NCBI GenBank assembly: GCA_964453345.1
Contig: CAYVOC010000030.1
Location: forward strand, 1 to 16,589
DNA: 16,589 bases
Origin: an uncultured Aquificales bacterium
Lineage (GTDB): Bacteria > Thermosulfidibacterota > Thermosulfidibacteria > Thermosulfidibacterales > Thermosulfidibacteraceae
Reading direction: 5' to 3'
The stretch's first letter is position 1. Every line of letters starts with the position of its first letter. Below, piece by piece: positions 1,934-11,581 of this stretch. The position numbers were made by a program, and so were the translations under genes. The notes beneath the pieces were generated by a model. It did no database searches. It was not told the origin of the DNA and worked only from the letters and a program-made list of their open reading frames with translations.

Positions 1934-1963
1934 GGGTGCGGGTTGCACACCCGCACCCCTTTT
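1934..1963. terminator. Intrinsic terminator hairpin between convergent ALDH and diguanylate cyclase genes
   Basis: Perfect 10-bp stem GGGTGCGGGT (1934-1943) / ACCCGCACCC (1949-1958) with a 5-nt loop, followed by CTTTT on +. An A-run at 1923-1927 could give a displaced U-tract on -. Confidence 0.75.
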
Positions 1964-3812
1964 ACGCCACCACCACCCTGTTTCTCCCGCTTCTTTTGGC
2001 CCTGTATAGGGCCTTGTCGGCTTCCTTTATGCATTTTTTGATGATTTCGACCATGTTTTTACAGTTGGGATCTTCCGCGTTCCAGCAGGCGGTTTTAACA
2101 CCGATGCTCACGGTTATCTGGATTTTCTTTTTGCCCACCCTTACTGGCTGGGCTTCTATCTTAGATCTTATTCTTTCCGCCACCGCCTTTCCCGCCCTGG
2201 GATCTGTGCTGTCGAAGGCTACCAGGAACTCTTCGCCCCCGTATCTTCCCATGACATCGTAGGGTCTCAGGCAACTCTTCACGGTTTCAGCCACTCTCTT
2301 TAAAACGGCGTCCCCTACGGGATGTCCAAAGGTGTCGTTTACCTTTTTGAATCTGTCCAGGTCTATCATAAGTATGTGAACGCAGCTTCTGCTTCTACAG
2401 CTCCTTTCAAAAAGCTCTTTGAGCTTGGCCATCAAAGCTTCCCTGTTGAAGAACTTTGTCAGGGGATCGTAACTCATCAGGGTTGACCAGTCCTGTATCT
2501 CCACAAGAACTATGACCACTAAAAGATTGAAGACTATCCATATAAGCAGGGTCTCTCTTTCGTAGATGTTGATGATGTTTAGGGGAGCTATCTTGAGTAT
2601 GTAGTATTCCGTGTTCGGTATAGTGGCCTTCACGGCGGTGTAGCATTCCTTGGGGTTTCTTTTGTTGCATATTATGTTCTGTCCCCTTGGGACGAAGATC
2701 TGGCCCCTGTAGGCGGTGTTGCCCAGAATCTTTTCCTTTAGGATTTGCCTTAACAGATCTTCTTTGCAATATATGCATGTTCCTACGAACCTTTCCGGTC
2801 CCTCAATGACGAGGCCGCTTTTATCGAGTAGAAGGAAGTTTCCCTGGAAGATGTTGATGGGGAAAATTGAACTGAGGGAGTATTTGAACACCATAACCCC
2901 CGCTATTTTTCCCGAGTGCCAGTAGGGGAAGGCGAAGGAGAGGCCTGTTATGTTGGTGATTAGCCCCCTTGATATGTAAACGCTGGGTTTTCCGGATATC
3001 GCCCTTTTGAAGTAGGGCCTGAAGCTGAAGTTTCTGCCCGTCGGTTCGGGCATGGACGAGACCCTCACCACGCCCCGATCGTCCACAAAGTAGGCGATAT
3101 CGCTTTTGTAAAGGTCCCTCAGAAGGTGTAGGTATAGGATAGATCTTTTGTCGGTGGGGTTCAGTATGACCTTTCGGGTTTCTTTCATGAGAAGGGCCGA
3201 TTTGAGCAGGCGTTTAAAATAGTTTATCCTGAACATGAACGCGCTGGATGCCTTTTTCGCATCCATCAGATTTCTCACCGCTATTTGGGACTGATAGTTG
3301 TTGATGAGGGTAACCACGGTATATCCGGATACGAAGGTGAAAATGGCGTATAGTATGCATATCTTTTCTGCTATTCCGGGAAAGAGTAGGAAGGAAAAGA
3401 GTTTTATAAACAGATAGCAGCTTATCAAAAATACGGCAATTGATAAGAAAACATGCGGATTTACAAGATTCTCCACTGCTGAAATCAGCGCTATTGCGGG
3501 GATAATGACATAAAATTTCCTGTCCTTTATGTGCAATTTTATTTTTAAATAAGCCATGGTGATTAGCGAGATAGCGACTATGAGCAGGGCGTTTGTTCTT
3601 GCGGGAAAGATTCCCAATAGCTCTGCGAATCTTGATAGGATCAGAACGGCTGTGGTTGTGAGTATCGCCTGTATGTAGGGGGTGTTGTGGGTTCTCTTCT
3701 CTATTATGCTTACTATCATCAGCGATAGGTATAGAAGGGAAAAGGTCACGGTTGCGATGTTTAGGAAGTTGACCCACAGCTTGCTGTATTCTATAAAGAC
3801 TATGCTTGTCAT
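1962..3812 (-). CDS. Membrane-bound diguanylate cyclase (multi-TM N-terminus, dCache-like sensor, GGDEF)
   Basis: C-terminal YDPLTKFFNR, MIDLDRFKKVNDTFGHPVGDAVL and RYGGEEF, with an RxxD I-site (RPYD) and ADKALYRAKRSGRNRV. The Cache signature is GRNFSFRPYFKRA...G. About 6 hydrophobic segments lie in the first 170 aa and one more precedes the GGDEF domain. Confidence 0.93.
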   Translation of the reverse strand: MTSIVFIEYSKLWVNFLNIATVTFSLLYLSLMIVSIIEKRTHNTPYIQAILTTTAVLILSRFAELLGIFPARTNALLIVAISLITMAYLKIKLHIKDRKFYVIIPAIALISAVENLVNPHVFLSIAVFLISCYLFIKLFSFLLFPGIAEKICILYAIFTFVSGYTVVTLINNYQSQIAVRNLMDAKKASSAFMFRINYFKRLLKSALLMKETRKVILNPTDKRSILYLHLLRDLYKSDIAYFVDDRGVVRVSSMPEPTGRNFSFRPYFKRAISGKPSVYISRGLITNITGLSFAFPYWHSGKIAGVMVFKYSLSSIFPINIFQGNFLLLDKSGLVIEGPERFVGTCIYCKEDLLRQILKEKILGNTAYRGQIFVPRGQNIICNKRNPKECYTAVKATIPNTEYYILKIAPLNIINIYERETLLIWIVFNLLVVIVLVEIQDWSTLMSYDPLTKFFNREALMAKLKELFERSCRSRSCVHILMIDLDRFKKVNDTFGHPVGDAVLKRVAETVKSCLRPYDVMGRYGGEEFLVAFDSTDPRAGKAVAERIRSKIEAQPVRVGKKKIQITVSIGVKTACWNAEDPNCKNMVEIIKKCIKEADKALYRAKRSGRNRVVVA

Positions 3813-5787: not shown

Positions 5788-5797
5788 GGTTTTTGGT

Positions 5798-5819
5798 TAG
5801 GGGGGCATGCGGCCCCCTA
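5798..5819. other. GC-rich inverted repeat directly after the octaheme cytochrome stop
   Basis: TAGGGGG (5798-5804) / CCCCCTA (5813-5819). There is no U-tract on the - strand, so it is more likely a stabilising or pausing hairpin than a terminator. Confidence 0.4.
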
Positions 5820-7046
5820 TTTGTGGGCCGCATGCTTTCTCATGCACTCCGCCATGTGCTTTATCTTCACGAGGGTCTCCTTCATCTTGGCGTATCCATA
5901 CCAGGTGGTGTAGTCGGGCATTATGTGGAAGGCTGCCTGGTAGGTCTTCATGCGGTAGTCCATGAACATCTCATACAGAAGCTCCTCTATGGGCGTTTCC
6001 ACCTCGTAGAAGGTGAGAAGATCGGGGTAGGGCCAGGTGAAGGGCTTTTTCTTGGGCTTTATTATGCCGTCCTTGTAGAGGTCCCTCACGATGTCTATGG
6101 CCTCGGCAAATATTTTGTCCGCAGCCTTTATCATGAGGTCTGCGTTTTTGAGGTTTTCCCTGGCAAAGTTCTCGGAATGGCACCTCTTGCAGACGGCGAC
6201 CATCCTCTCCCTTTCCCTCTTCCAGTCTTCGGCGGTCAATCTTGCGAGCTTTGCCTTCTTGACGATTTCCAGGCGCTTGGTGGGCTTCCCGTTGGCATCG
6301 AGGACGCCCAGGGCCTTCAGTATCTCAACCCTGTATTTCATCCACTCCTTGTCGGGCTCAGGAAGCCTGAGGGCCAGAAAGCCCCACGCCGTCATAACCC
6401 TGTGGTCCCCGTTGGGCATGTGGCAGTCCTGGCAGGTGGGTCCCCTGTGGGCCTTTCTGTCGGTGACGTAGGCTGCGCCGTGCTTGGAGTGGAACCACAT
6501 CTCCCACTGGGCGTGGTCAAAGCCGGTGTGGCAGCTGTTGCAGGCTTCAGGTTCCCTTGCCTCCTTGACGGAGAAGGCGTGTCTTGTGTGGCAGTTCTGG
6601 CAGTCCATGCCGTATTTGTAATACTTTCTGTATTCCACGGCGTGCCTGACCTTGTCGTCCACTATGCCCAGGTTGTGGCAGCCGTTGCAGCCCTTCTGCC
6701 CCGCAATGAAGGCCTTGGGCTGCGTGTGGGCGAACTCCGGAAAGGCCACAACGGGAAGAAGTCCCAGGGCGTGCTTTCCGGACATGTATTGCTTCACCTG
6801 ATTTCTGTGGCACCTTTTGCATGTGCTGATGGTGGGAAGCTTTGCCTTGTCCGCATCCTTGGCGGTTTTGTGGGCGCTTCCGTGACAGGACTTGCAGGTG
6901 AGCCTCTTTGCCATCTTGCCCCGGTTGAAGTCTTTGACGATTTCCGGGGTCACCTTTTTGTGGCAGTCCTCACAGGAAGAGGGACGGGCCAAAGATGGTC
7001 CGGAAATGAGCAGAACCAGGGCCACCAGTAGACTGAACACTCTCAT
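5817..7046 (-). CDS. Octaheme c-type cytochrome, hydroxylamine oxidoreductase (HAO) family, reductive type
   Basis: Sec signal peptide and eight CxxCH motifs (CEDCH, CKSCH, CKRCH, CNGCH, CQNCH, CNSCH, CQDCH, CKRCH). HAO-family signatures CHTRHxFS..xA..PExC..CHxGFDH...W..SKHG and PTCQDCHM, plus C-terminal FHIMPDYTTWYG. SD GGGAGG. Confidence 0.9.
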   Translation of the reverse strand: MRVFSLLVALVLLISGPSLARPSSCEDCHKKVTPEIVKDFNRGKMAKRLTCKSCHGSAHKTAKDADKAKLPTISTCKRCHRNQVKQYMSGKHALGLLPVVAFPEFAHTQPKAFIAGQKGCNGCHNLGIVDDKVRHAVEYRKYYKYGMDCQNCHTRHAFSVKEAREPEACNSCHTGFDHAQWEMWFHSKHGAAYVTDRKAHRGPTCQDCHMPNGDHRVMTAWGFLALRLPEPDKEWMKYRVEILKALGVLDANGKPTKRLEIVKKAKLARLTAEDWKRERERMVAVCKRCHSENFARENLKNADLMIKAADKIFAEAIDIVRDLYKDGIIKPKKKPFTWPYPDLLTFYEVETPIEELLYEMFMDYRMKTYQAAFHIMPDYTTWYGYAKMKETLVKIKHMAECMRKHAAHK

Positions 7047-7057
7047 TTCAAACCTCC

Positions 7058-7336
7058 CTATTCATATTCGAATTCTACCCATACGCCGTGGTTGGAGAGC
7101 TTTTGCCTTTCGATCTCCACGGCTTCCCATATGGAGTTGAGCAGATCAAGGTATTTGGCAAGCACCTTGAGATGCACGTTGTTTATGTGGGAGAGACCGT
7201 CTTCTCCGCATTCGGGGCATGTGAAGATGGGGGTGGGACTCTTCTTGACCCACTCCAAGAGCCTTTCCAGTTCCACAACCTCTCCGTGCTCCTTGCCGCA
7301 TATGTTGCATTTGAACTTTATGGCCTTCACCTTCAT
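7058..7336 (-). CDS. Small zinc-ribbon/rubredoxin-like hypothetical protein (92 aa)
   Basis: FKCNICG ... FTCPECG followed by a helical C-terminus. A strong SD AGGAGGTG 6 nt upstream of ATG 7336 favours this start over GTG 7345. Confidence 0.75.
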   Translation of the reverse strand: MKVKAIKFKCNICGKEHGEVVELERLLEWVKKSPTPIFTCPECGEDGLSHINNVHLKVLAKYLDLLNSIWEAVEIERQKLSNHGVWVEFEYE

Positions 7337-7365
7337 GGCTGGCACCTCCTTTAAAATTTTGTGTT

Positions 7366-7394
7366 ATTCTACCATGCCAGCCAGCCGCCGTCCA
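7366..7394 (-). promoter_or_regulatory. Putative internal sigma70 promoter for the Zn-ribbon and octaheme cytochrome genes
   Basis: TGGACG (7394-7389), 17 nt, then TAGAAT (7371-7366) with an extended TGn motif. It overlaps the SDR stop codon. Confidence 0.55.
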
Positions 7395-8133
7395 CCACAA
7401 GGCAGTGTCCTGTTATATAAGACGCCATGGGAGATGCCAGAAACAACACCGCATTTGCTACCTCATCGGGAGAGCCGAATCTTGACATGGGTATCCTGGA
7501 TATGAGCTGTTTTCTTATTCCCTCTATGGACTGGACGCCCGCCGTCATATCGGTTGTGATGAAGCCGGGGCAGATTGCGTTTACCCTTATGCCGAAGGGT
7601 GCCCACTCCACCGCCAGGGATTTGGTGAAGGTGGTCATGGCGCCCTTGGTGGCGGTGTAAACCGCTATTTTTGCCATGCCCACAATCCCCACGATGGAGG
7701 ATATGTTGATCGTGGACGGGTCCTCGCCCCTTTTCAGCAGCTCAAAGGCGGCCTTGCAACAGTAAAACATCCCCTTGACATTGACATCCAGCATGAAGTC
7801 CCAGTCCCTTTCGGGGCTTTTGACGAAGGATGTGAAATGAGGGCTGACTCCCGCATTGTTGACCAAAATGTCGAGCTTCCCCTCTTTTTCTTCTATCAAA
7901 TCGAACAGGCTTTGCACGTCTTCCTGTCTTGAGACATCGCATCTTTTTATCACAGGTTCGGGCCAGCCTGCTTCTGATATCTCTTTGCAAAGGTTCTCTA
8001 ATAGCTCCTGGTTTCTCCCCACGGCGTAAACCTTGGCTCCTGCTTCGGCAAGTTTTTTGGCTATGGCCTTGCCTATTCCCCTTGTGGCTCCCGTAACGAC
8101 GGCGACTTTGCCTGAAAGGTCTATCTCTACCAT
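7369..8133 (-). CDS. Classical short-chain dehydrogenase/reductase (FabG/KduD-like)
   Basis: TGATRGIG, LDILVNNAG, NISS, YTATK (YxxxK), IRVNAICPG and VDGG. SD GAGGAGGTG 6 nt before ATG 8133. Confidence 0.93.
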   Translation of the reverse strand: MVEIDLSGKVAVVTGATRGIGKAIAKKLAEAGAKVYAVGRNQELLENLCKEISEAGWPEPVIKRCDVSRQEDVQSLFDLIEEKEGKLDILVNNAGVSPHFTSFVKSPERDWDFMLDVNVKGMFYCCKAAFELLKRGEDPSTINISSIVGIVGMAKIAVYTATKGAMTTFTKSLAVEWAPFGIRVNAICPGFITTDMTAGVQSIEGIRKQLISRIPMSRFGSPDEVANAVLFLASPMASYITGHCLVVDGGWLAW

Positions 8134-8146
8134 GCTTTTCACCTCC

Positions 8147-9424
8147 TCAGAGTCTGAGTTTCTCCTTTATGGCCGCTTCAAGGGCCTCGTTCCTTCTTTT
8201 AAGGTAGGATAAATGGGCCTTTCTTGAGTGCAGCACCTGAAGGTAGTGTAAAAGGGCTATGAGGATCATCCCTCCCAGGGTGTTTCCCAAGGTTGCGGGT
8301 ATGAAGAGTCCTGTGAACCATCGGGACAGACTCACGCCCGCTCCGTAAACCCTGCCCAGAAGGATCTCGCTTGTGGAGACCACCACATGGGTGAAGTGCC
8401 CGATGGCCATTACGAATATGCACGCCCATACGGCTATCAGCTTTGCCACATCGCTTTTCGTTGCCAGCACAAGCCAGGTCATGGTGGTTATGATGGCACC
8501 GGCGAACACGGCGCTCACAAGGGTTTCCGCAAAGGGCCGGGACAGCTTGTAGAGGGCGAGGGCCTGAAGGTGTTCAACGGGTAGGTGTCCGAGGGATCCC
8601 TTGCCCCCTGCCAGAACAAGCAGGGAGAAGACAAATGCCCCTATAAGGTTTCCGGTCAGGGTTAGTCCCCATAGCTTGATAAGCTTTCCCATTTTCTCTT
8701 CCCCTTCAAGGACGGGGATTACGGGAACGAGGAAGTTTTCGGTGAATAGCTCGCTGTGGGAAAGCTTCAACAGTATGAATCCTATGGGAAAGAAGAGGGC
8801 TCCTATTAAGGTGGATAGTTTGGAGTTTGCCGTGGCTCCAGCGGCGGCCGCCATGGCCACGGCGCCGAAGGTTACATGTATGGCTCCTATGATGCCTGAC
8901 ATGAGCATCTCAAGCCAGGGCCTTGAGAGCCTTTTGATTCCGGTTTCAATGGCCCTTTGAAAGACCAGAAAGGGGCTTTCTTCCTCTTTACCTTCCTCTT
9001 TGAGCATCATCAGCGCCTGGATGAAGCGTTCAATGTGGTTCGCTTCGTCCTTCATTATGCTCTCAAGCACTTCGGATACCTGGGGGTCCTCGGAGAACAG
9101 GGAGTCTTCCTTGTAGCTGTTGAAGGCCTTTTCTTCCAGAATGATATTTAGCCTCAAAATATCTGCATCGGTGTGCATGCTATCCACAAGCTCTATGATG
9201 CGTTCCTCTTCGTAGGGGATACCGGGCTTCACCTCGCCGCCGAGCCTTTTTATGAGCTGGGCGAGTATGGAGGCGTGGTAGGCTTCGGTGTTTGCGATGC
9301 TTCTTAAAAGCAGGGCTATGTCCGTGTCCTTCACCCTCTGGGCCTGGTAGTGGTATATCTTTACGGCGATTCTCTCGGCGTATAGGTTTTTCTCGAGCTT
9401 TTCTATGATTTTATCTGAGGACAT
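8147..9424 (-). CDS. Fusion: N-terminal ferritin-like diiron four-helix bundle plus C-terminal formate/nitrite transporter (FNT, YfdC-like) channel
   Basis: aa 1-141 contain E17, E47xxH50, E97 and E127xxH130 with the RLGG turn. aa ~150-396 contain FPIGF, ELFTEN, GNLIGA, FTHVVVS and TLGNTLGG with six TM helices. It is one uninterrupted ORF. Confidence 0.88.
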   Translation of the reverse strand: MSSDKIIEKLEKNLYAERIAVKIYHYQAQRVKDTDIALLLRSIANTEAYHASILAQLIKRLGGEVKPGIPYEEERIIELVDSMHTDADILRLNIILEEKAFNSYKEDSLFSEDPQVSEVLESIMKDEANHIERFIQALMMLKEEGKEEESPFLVFQRAIETGIKRLSRPWLEMLMSGIIGAIHVTFGAVAMAAAAGATANSKLSTLIGALFFPIGFILLKLSHSELFTENFLVPVIPVLEGEEKMGKLIKLWGLTLTGNLIGAFVFSLLVLAGGKGSLGHLPVEHLQALALYKLSRPFAETLVSAVFAGAIITTMTWLVLATKSDVAKLIAVWACIFVMAIGHFTHVVVSTSEILLGRVYGAGVSLSRWFTGLFIPATLGNTLGGMILIALLHYLQVLHSRKAHLSYLKRRNEALEAAIKEKLRL

Positions 9425-9430
9425 TGCCCG

Positions 9431-10276
9431 TCAGGCACCCCATTTGAGCTTGGTTCTCAGCACTTCAAAGAAGTCCCTGTTGGGGTTCTTTATGATCTTT
9501 ATTGTTTTTGGCGCCTTTCTCACCTTGACGAGGTCCTTGACTTTAAGGGCAAAGCCCACCTGTCCGTCAAGGGTGACAAAGACATCCTCGTTTTCCGTGT
9601 TGAGAACAACTTCAATTTCGCTTGTGTCCGGTATGACTATGGGGCGCTGGCTCAGGGTGAAGGGGCATATGGGATTGAGGATGAAGGCTGGTATGGTTGG
9701 ATACATTATGGGGCCTCCCGCAGCCAATGAGTAGGCGGTTGAGCCGGTGGGGGTGGATATGATCAGTCCGTCGGCCCTGTAGGTGGTTAAAAACCTTCCG
9801 TCCACCCTGGTTTCAAGCTCTATTATCCTTGCGAGGGTTCCCTTGTTTATCACCACATCGTTGAGCACACGGTATTTGGCCATCATCTCTCCATGGCGGT
9901 AGATGATGGCTTCAAGCATGAAGCGTTCATCCACTGCGTAATCACCTGAGAGCACCTTTTCCATCATCTCGTGCATCTCATCTAAGGTGACTTCCGTTAA
10001 GAAGCCGAGTCTTCCGAGATTTACACCCAAGATGGGAACATCATTCCCGTAAACGAGCCTTGCAACGGAGAGGAAGGTCCCGTCTCCTCCTATAACAACG
10101 ATCACATCGGAAACGTAGGGGATTTCCGATTTTTTGTAAGAGGATTCCGTGCCCGCTATCACCGCCGTCTCTTCATCCATGAAAACTTCCGCACCCTTGC
10201 TCTTCAACCACTCGGCCAGTTTGGAAACCACTTCATCTGCGGGCTTTTTGGGCTTGGCGATTATGCCTATCCTCAT
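9431..10276 (-). CDS. nadK: NAD(+) kinase
   Basis: GGDGTFL, GVNLGRLGFL, LNDVV, ADGLIISTPTGSTAYSLAAGGP and KLKWG. GGAGG 6 nt upstream of ATG 10276. Confidence 0.97.
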   Translation of the reverse strand: MRIGIIAKPKKPADEVVSKLAEWLKSKGAEVFMDEETAVIAGTESSYKKSEIPYVSDVIVVIGGDGTFLSVARLVYGNDVPILGVNLGRLGFLTEVTLDEMHEMMEKVLSGDYAVDERFMLEAIIYRHGEMMAKYRVLNDVVINKGTLARIIELETRVDGRFLTTYRADGLIISTPTGSTAYSLAAGGPIMYPTIPAFILNPICPFTLSQRPIVIPDTSEIEVVLNTENEDVFVTLDGQVGFALKVKDLVKVRKAPKTIKIIKNPNRDFFEVLRTKLKWGA

Positions 10277-10304
10277 CGTCACCTCCCTGCGCCCTGCATG
10301 TTAA

Positions 10305-10333
10305 AGTTTAGCAGGGGATGCTACTCAACACAA
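10305..10333 (-). promoter_or_regulatory. Putative sigma70 promoter of the nadK-led operon
   Basis: TTGTGT (10333-10328), 17 nt, then TAAACT (10310-10305) with an extended TGn motif. Confidence 0.5.
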
Positions 10334-10425
10334 GGTTGCTGGGATCGGTGGGATGTGGTCGCTTTGTTGATTTTTCCGGTTCTCTGTGGGAGAGTGCTGA
10401 GGCATATCTACAGGGAGGTGCGGTT

Positions 10426-10728
10426 TTGAGAAGGATTGTGATGATCGGTTTGGGGCTGCTTATGTGCGGGCTCGTGTATGCGTATCAGCCCGACTATCGC
10501 ATGACCCCTGGGGGAAGAAGCGGTGGTATGTCCGATAGGGAGGTGGAGGAGTCGTTCAAGCGGTGTCTTGATTCCTGCAACGAGCATAGTAACAGGCGGG
10601 ATTTCCTCAAGTGTTACGAGGAGTGTGAGAGAATCTTTAAGAGGGGCAAAAGGCAGTATTTGAGACATCGCAGGGGCAATGGGCACAGGAACGGAGGACC
10701 CAGCGGATACACCGGAGTTAAGGGTTAG
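10426..10728 (+). CDS. Small secreted protein with twin CX3C motif (100 aa)
   Basis: SD GGGAGGTG then TTG 10426. Signal peptide RRIVMIGLGLLMCGLVYA, then CLDSC...CYEEC and a basic Gly-rich tail. Confidence 0.65.
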   Translation: MRRIVMIGLGLLMCGLVYAYQPDYRMTPGGRSGGMSDREVEESFKRCLDSCNEHSNRRDFLKCYEECERIFKRGKRQYLRHRRGNGHRNGGPSGYTGVKG

Positions 10729-11581
10729 TGGGGCTGCTTTTTGCGCTTTTTCCGCTGAAGGCGAGTTTCCCCTTCTCCGAGCCGTATAGCAGATCCATCA
10801 GGGCCTCGCGGAGGGTATCCTTGTCGAATTCCCTTTTTATCCTGCCCTCAACCGCCAGGGATATTATGCCCGTTTCCTCTGACACCACAACCACCACCGC
10901 GTCCGTCTCCTCTGTGAGGCCTATGGCGGCCCTGTGGCGGGTGCCGAGGGCCTTGCTTATCATGGGATCTGAGGAGAGGGGCAAAAGGCATGCGGCCGCC
11001 GCGATCCTGTCCCCCCTGATGATAACAGCCCCGTCGTGCAGGGGGGAGTAGGGGAGGAAGATGGATGTGAGCAGTTCCTCGCTCACGATGGCGTCGAGCA
11101 TTATTCCGGAATCCACGTAGTTTTTAAGCCCCATGTTCCGTTCAAAGACGATGAGGGCCCCTATTCTCTTTCTCGAGAAGTATGCGCAGGCGTCAACCAC
11201 GGCGTTTACCACCATGGTCTCCTTGAGGGTTGGACCGAGGGGATAGATGGTTCCCACATCCGCAAGGCCCCTTCTCAGTTCCGGCTGGAAGAGAATAACT
11301 ATTATGAGCACTCCCACCTGCCAGAAGTTCTGAAACAGCCACATTAGGGTCCTTAGCTCGAACCAGCGGGCTATAAAGGAAAGAAGGACAAGTATCAGAA
11401 GGCCCAGAAGCATCCTCAGGGCCTTTGTGCCCCTTACAATTTTTATCACCTGATAGACCATAAAGGAGACTAAGAGAATGTCCAGAACATCCTTTATGGT
11501 CATGGAGTGGAGGCGGCCGGTGAAGGAGTAGAAGGCTATTGTCAGCTGCTGTTTAAACTTTAGCAGTTCCTGTTTCCACAT
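10718..11581 (-). CDS. cdaA: Diadenylate cyclase CdaA (DacA)
   Basis: Three N-terminal TM helices (DVLDILLV..., ILFQPELRRGL), then GALIVFER, PLHDGAV (DGA), LGTRHRAAIG (RHR) and VVSEETG. The start could alternatively be ATG 11503. Confidence 0.96.
   Translation of the reverse strand: MWKQELLKFKQQLTIAFYSFTGRLHSMTIKDVLDILLVSFMVYQVIKIVRGTKALRMLLGLLILVLLSFIARWFELRTLMWLFQNFWQVGVLIIVILFQPELRRGLADVGTIYPLGPTLKETMVVNAVVDACAYFSRKRIGALIVFERNMGLKNYVDSGIMLDAIVSEELLTSIFLPYSPLHDGAVIIRGDRIAAAACLLPLSSDPMISKALGTRHRAAIGLTEETDAVVVVVSEETGIISLAVEGRIKREFDKDTLREALMDLLYGSEKGKLAFSGKSAKSSPTNP

Follow-up and report, generated by a model that had tools for sequence, protein, structure and literature searches.

The DNA analysed here (the window) is a stretch of 16,589 nt from contig CAYVOC010000030.1 of an uncultured Aquificales bacterium, and its positions 8147–9424 are occupied on the minus strand by a single open reading frame (ORF) of 425 aa with an ATG start. 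The gene encodes one polypeptide, in which a haem-free, cage-less and presumably cytoplasmic diiron bundle of the bacterioferritin (Bfr)/Dps-like type is attached to the N-terminal helix of a channel of the YfdC type among the formate/nitrite transporters (FNTs) (Table 1). An earlier note on the same DNA had read the ORF as a ferritin-like domain, an acidic linker and a full FNT channel, a layout borne out by both Pfam and AlphaFold2. The Pfam family Form_Nir_trans (PF01226) was matched at aa 154–394 (E = 2.9e-53, 181.2 bits vs. a cut-off of 34.6) over profile positions 2–239 of 240, and the N-terminal part of the protein, aa 9–66 and beyond, was matched by Rubrerythrin (E = 1.7e-11) and Ferritin_2 (E = 7e-9). 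A full-length AlphaFold2 model based on a 22-row alignment had a mean predicted local distance difference test score (pLDDT) of 81.8, with the linker (aa 145–150) as the sole internal stretch below 50. At this linker, about 12 additional residues are present in one group of relatives, clade D, in the alignment of 22 proteins.

Modelled alone, the N-terminal domain (N-domain) was predicted with high confidence (pLDDT 93.4; predicted template-modelling score [pTM] 0.88) as a bundle of four helices (aa 3–30, 34–60, 86–110 and 114–144) with a short additional helix (aa 71–82). The six diiron ligands (E17, E47, H50, E97, E127 and H130) and Y24 were found where the earlier note had placed them, and all seven residues were invariant in 22/22 family members and again in 14/14 N-domains of a second alignment, drawn from individual loci. 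The N-domain evolves faster than the channel (25–72% vs. 39–75% identity across the family), and the invariance of the ligands and Y24 despite this indicates that metal binding is under selection. The six ligands align with those of solved Bfr chains, while position 48, which in Bfr provides the haem-ligand Met, is A, R, E, Q or S in the family and Met in 0/22, extending to all members the absence first noticed in the window. There are no Cys residues in the N-domain of the window or in 15 of the 22 N-domains, and the other seven contain one or two that do not align.

The N-domain is closest to bacterioferritin/Dps-like proteins. A family profile compared with all Protein Data Bank (PDB) sequences matched 9viw, a tandem ‘bacterioferritin’ (E = 1.3e-22), 8w1d, the Dps-like PA4880 (E = 6.8e-13), and 1nf4, a Desulfovibrio bacterioferritin (E = 3.7e-12), with several sulerythrin/rubrerythrin chains reached only at about 3e-4. 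By Foldseek, the best fold match to the N-domain model was PA4880 (template-modelling [TM] score 0.83), followed by the Bacteroides ‘thioferritin’ 2vzb, bacterioferritins and archaeal DPSL proteins. Beyond the fusion family, the best matches to the N-domain were tandem ferritin-like proteins of ~300 aa and single ferritin-like proteins of ~150–190 aa, not MbfA. A rubrerythrin identity was rejected, based on the weak matches to PDB rubrerythrin chains (~3e-4 vs. 1e-22 to 1e-12 for Bfr/Dps-like chains), the lack of Cys and the absence, by Pfam, of the rubredoxin-like FeS4 domain (two CxxC) of rubrerythrins. ‘Bacterioferritin-like’, the label chosen in the earlier note, is the more precise of the two.

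What the N-domain has in common with the Bfr/Dps-like proteins is the bundle itself (TM-score 0.77–0.86 to 8w1d PA4880, 2vzb from B. fragilis, 2clb from S. solfataricus and 1nf4 from D. desulfuricans) and the symmetric E/ExxH/E/ExxH site with its Tyr. Those proteins assemble into shells of 12 or 24 subunits with a mineral core, the 24-mer shell of Bfr also bearing the haem Met, whereas the single tethered domain of the fusion would build neither, and a shell would be implausible for a domain carried on a membrane pentamer. With no haem Met and a single, tethered bundle, no ferritin shell should form, which would rule out a role in iron storage. Thioferritins (DPSL) possess a conserved Cys pair beside the diiron site that has no counterpart in the N-domains of the fusion.

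The remainder of the protein is a complete channel. Its model has the aquaporin-like six-helix fold with broken transmembrane helices 2 and 5, and target-normalised TM-scores of 0.78–0.86 were obtained for LCIA, PfFNT, FocA and HSC (0.80–0.86 for HSC/FNT3). The universal FNT Thr and His, T228 (in ELFTEN) and H346 (in FTH), are present as the earlier note described them and invariant in 22/22. That note went on to treat the protein as an anion channel of the nitrite/HS- type, a view that did not hold up, as the channel was placed by three lines of evidence (subfamily markers, phmmer scores and a tree) with the YfdC-type FNTs.

An alignment with E. coli FocA, NirC and YfdC (EcYfdC) taken from NC_000913, which reproduces the published EcYfdC E115/E237 numbering, was used to compare the channel with the YfdC-alpha markers tabulated by Mukherjee et al. 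2017 (PMC5525234, Table 4). Relative to FocA, the fusion has L79→F216, G86→H223, S92→E229, T93→N230, N172→G309, F202→M339, E208→T345, A212→V349 and M216→E353, the last being the second YfdC-alpha Glu. The YfdC-alpha pattern (L79→F/Y, G86→R/H/D, T93→N, N172→G, F202→V/I/M, E208→A/S/T and A212→V) is matched at every one of these positions, and both vestibule Glu residues are kept across the family (E229 in 21/22, E353 in 22/22). The marker N254→F/Y is unmatched, with L/I characteristic of the fusion family at that position (L373 here; L, I or Y in the other tabulated members). A FocA, NirC or HSC subtype was rejected: markers of the HSC and NirC subfamilies are unmatched at N172, E208, A212, F202 and S/G92, and the NCBIfam equivalog scores fall far under their cut-offs (FocA TIGR04060, 61.4 vs. 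290 bits; NirC, 41.9 vs. 293; FocB, 26.8 vs. 499), as does the fnt subfamily score (112 vs. 232). With phmmer, the channel domain scored 72 bits against EcYfdC, 43 against FocA and 39.5 against NirC. A quick maximum-likelihood tree was built from 123 channel domains with only three reference sequences (FocA, NirC and EcYfdC); in it, FocA and NirC split off with 99% support by the Shimodaira-Hasegawa-like approximate likelihood-ratio test (SH-aLRT), leaving EcYfdC inside a 121-row group that holds the fusions and their stand-alone relatives; the fusions were not sister to EcYfdC and the backbone of the tree was unresolved. In the ESM Atlas, the protein's own cluster, of 57 members, was recovered together with YfdC-type clusters only; the latter had a score of 0.80 and serve as a lead only.

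Within this assignment, the fusion is a distant relative of EcYfdC, sharing the Pfam family, the fold and the YfdC-alpha subgroup markers at only 25% identity. Where the fusion has a folded diiron domain, EcYfdC has an acidic tail of ~45 aa, and at two positions where the fusion has basic residues, R165 (FocA K26; basic residue kept in 20/22) and K293 (FocA K156; K in 15/22), EcYfdC has E51 and V179. A third basic residue, R168, is kept in 22/22 and corresponds to FocA K29, an equivalence read by eye from the alignment. YfdC-type Glu and FocA-type basic vestibule residues thus occur together, and the charge of the permeant is not deducible from the sequence. To our knowledge, no substrate has been assigned to the YfdC branch, one of the eight subgroups of FNTs, and no function to YfdC itself. 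The only mechanistic work found for the branch is a simulation preprint (10.1101/637116), passages of which argue against E. coli YfdC being a channel for anions. For a channel of this type, the label ‘anion channel’ is not established.

Table 1. Features of the fusion gene and of genes near it; every codon coordinate within the fusion gene was verified by script, and coordinates refer to the window unless a locus is named
Feature	Coordinates	Strand	Remarks
Whole ORF	8147..9424	-	425 aa + stop: Bfr/Dps-like diiron domain, linker, YfdC-type FNT channel, C-terminal helix
N-terminal ferritin-like four-helix bundle, aa 1-144	8993..9424	-	AlphaFold2 models, Foldseek, profile vs. PDB
E17, diiron ligand, helix A	9374..9376	-	Invariant in 22/22 and 14/14
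Y24, second-sphere Tyr beside metal site	9353..9355	-	Invariant
E47-A48-Y49-H50, helix B ExxH motif	9275..9286	-	aa 48 = haem-ligand Met position of Bfr
E97, diiron ligand, helix C	9134..9136	-	Neighbours D88, R91, A100 and Y104 also (near-)invariant
E127-x-x-H130, helix D ExxH motif	9035..9046	-	Alignment
Acidic linker, aa 145-150 (within KEEGKEEES)	8975..8992	-	pLDDT <50; length differs among clades
Amphipathic helix, aa 151-166, with R165 and R168	8921..8974	-	Aligns with FocA N-terminal helix Y25/K26/T28/K29
FNT channel domain, aa 154-394	8243..8965	-	PF01226; same span in whole-genome scan
Omega-loop L226-F227-T228-E229-N230	8735..8749	-	T228 = FocA T91; E229/N230 = YfdC-alpha signature (S92→E, T93→N)
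K293	8546..8548	-	FocA K156 (periplasmic vestibule Lys); K 15/22, Y 7/22
S-loop/transmembrane helix 5b, T345-H346-V-V-V349-S-T-S-E353	8366..8392	-	H346 = FocA H209; T345, V349 and E353 YfdC-type markers
C-terminal cytoplasmic helix, aa 395-425	8150..8242	-	Terminal Leu invariant
NAD kinase gene (nadK)	9431..10282	-	6 nt upstream; linkage kept in L004 and L006, not L005
Short-chain dehydrogenase/reductase (SDR; FabG-like) gene	7369..8142	-	4 nt downstream; kept in L004 and L011
Octahaem cytochrome c, 409 aa, periplasmic	5817-7046	-	1.1 kb downstream; signal peptide, eight CxxCH
narG-narH-narJ-like genes in two Hippea metagenome-assembled genomes (MAGs)	L017:3595-9366, L018:3941-9580		

The fusion is real, conserved and ancient. 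The junction at 8960–9010, which the earlier note had singled out for a check of read coverage, was bridged by Logan contigs from 4/4 runs without an indel, joint or loose end; some of the four are metagenomes of hydrothermal vents and the others carry no label, at least three studies contributed to them, and one of the runs may be the source sample. In a search of 5.8 billion proteins, the N-domain and the channel occurred together in 53 of the 120 best clusters (34–100% identity), and in a one-genome-per-species collection the fused form was present at 35 of 80 kept loci, from MAGs labelled Aquificales, Thermodesulfobacteriota, Campylobacterales, Hippea, Ca. Acididesulfobacter or simply ‘bacterium’. 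A full-length or near-full-length fused frame was visible at 31 of the 35 loci and the remaining four (L008, L011, L013 and L036) end at contig edges, with the N-domain wholly unseen only in L011. The fused proteins formed four groups on an unsupported backbone in the quick tree, a topology compatible with a single origin of the fusion. Within the same order as the window, the fusion was found in 13 of 17 other genomes, as nine full-length stop-free matches, three matches cut at contig ends and one broken frame; it was not found in the other four, which are 71–94% complete. In the window's own genome (1.5 Mb, 99.9% complete) the fusion is the only FNT gene in a whole-genome scan.

Split versions of the gene were also looked for. 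Near 45 stand-alone FNT relatives, a hidden Markov model (HMM) of the N-domain detected no ferritin-like ORF within 8 kb, and clustering of their neighbours returned only spurious overlapping ORFs in high-GC DNA as conserved. The N-domain alone, compared with 1.84 billion representatives, gave 75 hits at E ≤ 1e-3 and three at E ≤ 1e-10, all three being members of the fusion family (one of them the frameshifted cluster P0121), so that no close homologue of the N-domain standing alone exists among these representatives. Broken or shortened copies do occur. In G010 (L092, G010:C10, 700–1994, minus strand) the frame is broken directly after H50; in P0121 the N-domain is followed by an out-of-frame tail from about aa 136; and the 346-aa record P0026 of Thermosulfidibacter takaii is annotated from an internal Met at the equivalent of about residue 80, with P0029 likewise called from an internal Met codon. 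The copies in G010, P0121 and P0026 are either pseudogenes or errors of sequencing or annotation. At locus L037, in a Bacillota MAG, the match begins at aa 98 with no N-domain HMM hit, in a high-GC contig where ORF calls are unreliable.

At the locus itself, nadK, the fusion gene and the SDR gene are probably on the same transcript. They close a housekeeping string typical of the order, kdtA-HAD-ftsH-folP-cdaA-nadK-fusion-SDR, which is kept in L004 and L006, partly in L011 and not in L005. The only gap in this minus-strand string lies between nadK and cdaA, where an ORF of 136 aa (10318–10728, plus strand) has no Pfam hit; this region may hold the nadK-fusion-SDR promoter rather than a gene. 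Beyond the SDR gene is the octahaem cytochrome c gene, which may belong to the operon of the fusion, though it does not adjoin the fusion gene in relatives. The cytochrome is distantly related to hydrazine dehydrogenase (HDH) and hydroxylamine oxidoreductase (HAO) (NCBIfam HDH, 82.9 bits vs. a cut-off of 900; Pfam Multi-haem_cyto, 9.4e-25). A 412-aa ORF mirroring its gene (5793–7031, plus strand) is probably spurious. Between the SDR and cytochrome genes lies a 95-aa ORF (7058–7345, minus strand) with two CxxC pairs, zinc-ribbon-like and with no Pfam hit, of which a 74%-identical copy stands at the same position in L011. Two nucleotide-signalling genes, for the CdaA c-di-AMP synthase (10718–11581, minus strand) and a Cache-GGDEF diguanylate cyclase (1962–3812, minus strand), are within 8 kb of the fusion and have no evident link to it.

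No gene context is common to the whole fusion family, contexts instead being specific to clades. In clade D (acid-mine MAGs including Ca. Acididesulfobacter), six same-strand genes directly follow the fusion at 18 of 20 loci, encoding first Fer4 and CCG, then a FAD protein of 347 aa and a hypothetical protein, and then Fer4 and CCG again (e.g., L020:9608-15864), and the other two contigs stop just past the fusion gene. This order, hdrC-B-A-hyp-C-B, is presumably that of the sulfur-oxidising heterodisulfide-reductase-like (sHdr) cluster. The 18 loci are close kin and amount to roughly one observation. Upstream, clade D has a divergent major facilitator superfamily (MFS) gene, with VIT1 and Usp genes farther upstream at some loci. 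In clade C (Hippea/Campylobacterales), a narG (1446 bits, cut-off 1084) is found together with narH and a narJ-like gene ~2 kb downstream of the fusion at two of three loci; Hippea is a genus of sulfur reducers. In clade B (Thermodesulfobacteriota), genes for an amino-acid ATP-binding cassette (ABC) transporter and a D-cysteine-desulfhydrase-family protein follow at one of five loci. A theme common to the contexts is enzymes by which reactive sulfur or nitrogen species are produced or consumed, and a location of some fusion clades near sulfur or nitrate enzyme genes is also a point of likeness to HSC and NirC. Such links arise easily by chance in the genomes of chemolithotrophs and are weak evidence. 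The window's genome contains no NarG-sized molybdoenzyme. It does encode one ferritin and, separately, a 288-aa MbfA-type protein with a Rubrerythrin-like N-domain and VIT1 (G000:C44; L093:602-1468, minus strand). A relative has a 373-aa MbfA-type version directly after feoB (G009:C91; L091:989-2110).

Both domains of the fusion are known and are annotated automatically, and the architecture seems unstudied. Full-text literature searches, in which some of the matches were judged by title and opening of the abstract, found no paper that describes a ferritin-like/FNT fusion; the main text of a survey of 2206 FNTs (PMC5525234), supplements aside, is without the words ‘fusion’, ‘fused’, ‘ferritin’ or ‘rubrerythrin’, and papers on the acid-mine clade make no mention of the fusion. 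The earlier suggestion that the architecture is uncharacterised therefore stands as far as papers are concerned. It needs amending with respect to databases, as automatic names at JGI (‘FNT family/rubrerythrin’ or ‘/bacterioferritin’) already label both domains and the 57-member cluster is present in the ESM Atlas.

The one characterised fusion of a ferritin-like domain with a transporter is MbfA, which exports iron and whose ferritin-like domain dimerises, according to portions of PMC4902296. The contrast with MbfA drawn in the earlier note was sound. The two proteins share an N-terminal cytoplasmic ferritin-like diiron bundle on a membrane transport domain; in MbfA the membrane part is VIT1/CCC1 and not FNT, the fusion has no VIT1 Pfam hit, and the MbfA bundle dimerises while that of the fusion would be borne on a pentamer. 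Against the MbfA model NF045676 the fusion scored 23.6 bits vs. a cut-off of 450, over aa 15–60 only. FocA offers a second comparison. Its pore signatures are unlike those of the fusion, and it has the same cytoplasmic N-terminal helix right before transmembrane helix 1, with basic residues at the K26 and K29 positions. The regulator of FocA, PflB, is a separate protein, whereas the fusion has a built-in, folded metallodomain.

FNTs assemble as pentamers of identical subunits, each subunit having its own pore and a cytoplasmic N-terminus, and from this knowledge of the family the fusion would place five diiron domains on the cytoplasmic face of the membrane. Our best reading, offered tentatively, is that the diiron domain serves as an iron- or redox-sensing gate that acts on the cytoplasmic N-terminal helix. 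The diiron site would be the sensor, responding to iron loading (apo vs. Fe-loaded), to oxidation by O2 or H2O2 (Fe(II)2 vs. Fe(III)2) or to binding of a small ligand; a change of state would rearrange the bundle; the rearrangement would pass through the linker to helix 151–166, the counterpart of the FocA N-terminal helix; and each pore would open or close with the iron or redox state of the cell. A small sulfur or nitrogen compound that can be protonated (H2S/HS-, bisulfite or nitrite) would be a likelier permeant than formate, this being the weakest step of the proposal.

In the fusion, helix 151–166, which includes R165 with R168 close behind, is joined to the last helix of the bundle by about six flexible residues. 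In FocA, as described in parts of a 2025 article on the full-length structure (PMC12559229), the N-terminal helix rests flat against the cytoplasmic face, undergoes an order-disorder change coupled to pore opening, can block the channel and regulates translocation, for which Y25, K26, T28 and K29 are crucial; the regulator PflB binds the N-terminal region. N-terminal control of FocA, together with an equivalent helix tethered to a diiron bundle, suggests a built-in sensor. The separate MbfA-type erythrin-VIT1 protein of the genome implies that iron export is already covered, which is consistent with gating. Further, the haloarchaeal proteins P0096, P0099 and P0110 (510–524 aa; e.g., from Haladaptatus litoreus) have a DsbA/thioredoxin-like domain (PF01323, PF13462) before a YfdC-type FNT and group with E. 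coli YfdC in the quick tree; a second kind of redox domain at the same place fits a general design in which a redox module is set on the N-terminus of the channel.

Several observations weigh against a sensor-gate. The full-length model had a pTM of only 0.57, with the orientation of the two domains undefined, and a complex prediction of aa 1–146 with aa 151–425, each with its alignment, scored 0.00, giving no answer and evidence neither way. Five-fold symmetry conflicts with the dimers usual for ferritin-like domains. Neighbourhoods differ between clades, so no context favours a particular signal or permeant, and upstream of family genes no site for an iron or peroxide regulator was found: a scan for Fur boxes in the 250 nt preceding 29 of them, run with no shuffled control, gave best matches with 6–11 mismatches in 19, nothing usable. 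The three broken copies (G010, P0121 and possibly T. takaii) imply either that some lineages can do without the gene or that the assemblies are faulty. Lastly, the invariant ligands suit a catalytic site equally well.

A catalytic site is the basis of the main rival, a tethered enzyme in which the diiron center at the cytoplasmic mouth of the pore would convert the permeant on its way in or ahead of its exit and couple transport to detoxification, by peroxidase/ferroxidase-type chemistry as in Dps-like proteins or by reaction with nitrite/NO, sulfite or sulfide, for example. The ligand set with its Tyr is complete and invariant, and the best structural matches, Dps-like/thioferritin proteins and Bfr, have catalytic diiron sites that use H2O2 or O2. 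Genes for reactive sulfur or nitrogen enzymes in three clades (sHdr-like, narGHJ and D-cysteine-desulfhydrase-family) and the HAO/HDH-like octahaem cytochrome of the window point the same way. Set against this, no module for electron delivery is evident, with neither a rubredoxin domain nor a Cys in the window's N-domain, and the thioferritin-type Cys pair is absent. The supportive contexts vary by clade, the 18 in clade D counting about once, and the order of the window has housekeeping synteny only (ftsH-folP-cdaA-nadK). We consider tethered catalysis unlikely rather than far-fetched.

A docking or assembly role, in which the bundle would recruit a soluble partner (ferritin or another enzyme) or link pentamers and the metal would be structural, appears improbable. 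Ferritin-like bundles commonly pair. Precedents are the binding of PflB by the FocA N-terminus, in the sections of PMC12559229 concerned, and the dimerising ferritin-like domain of MbfA, which portions of PMC4902296 indicate was also tested for interaction with Bfr. However, no neighbouring gene is conserved across clades as a candidate partner, the 45 stand-alone relatives have no ferritin-like gene within 8 kb, and strict invariance of every metal ligand exceeds the usual need of a structural role.

Operation as an analogue of MbfA, with cytoplasmic Fe(II) captured by the N-domain and iron, or a species coupled to iron detoxification, exported by the YfdC-type pore, is less probable still and would be surprising. 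It has the precedent of MbfA as an iron-exporting ferritin-like/transporter fusion, a weak NCBIfam MbfA hit at aa 15–60 (E = 2.9e-5) and a VIT1 gene 1.5–3 kb upstream at six clade-D loci. The hydrophobic constrictions of FNT pores let monovalent species through in neutralised form, and a divalent metal, which is not neutralisable in that way, would be unsuited to them. This selectivity, the erythrin-VIT1 protein and ferritin already encoded in the genome, and an N-domain related most closely to tandem ferritin-like, Bfr and Dps-like proteins rather than to MbfA make an exporter unlikely. The basic residues at the FocA K26 and K156 positions, lost in E. coli YfdC, and the lack of a Fur-like site upstream also count against it. 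In its favor, parts of the simulation preprint (10.1101/637116) propose passage of neutral or cationic species through YfdC-alpha channels, and both vestibule Glu are kept here. As for two genes joined by mis-assembly or sequencing error, the broken or short relatives (G010, P0121, P0026/P0029) lend this a vanishingly small chance beside a continuous open frame in all four independent run assemblies, fused loci from various studies and phyla, nine stop-free genomes of the same order and the want of a close stand-alone N-domain homologue.

The gene occurs widely among thermophilic and acidophilic bacteria that cycle sulfur in hot vents and acid mines, and its presence in 13 of 17 other genomes of the order suggests that it is probably physiologically important there. 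With the fusion, the MbfA principle of setting a ferritin-like bundle on a transporter reaches another, unrelated membrane fold in the same organism. As a sensor-gate, the fusion would also carry the FocA principle, in which the N-terminus controls the pore, over from a recruited partner protein to a sensor joined covalently to the channel. As the diiron domain is spectroscopically tractable, whatever binds or changes the site would be a prime candidate for either signal or permeant. It is conceivable, if doubtful, that this is the first FNT with a built-in metallocofactor, its five diiron centers gating the pore as iron, an oxidant or a bound small ligand dictates, or converting toxic sulfur or nitrogen species (sulfide, bisulfite or nitrite/NO) at its mouth. 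If so, the fusion would reveal what the orphan YfdC branch transports and, together with the MbfA-type protein of the same genome and the haloarchaeal DsbA-FNT proteins, would define the ‘redox module on the N-terminus of a channel’ as a general design.

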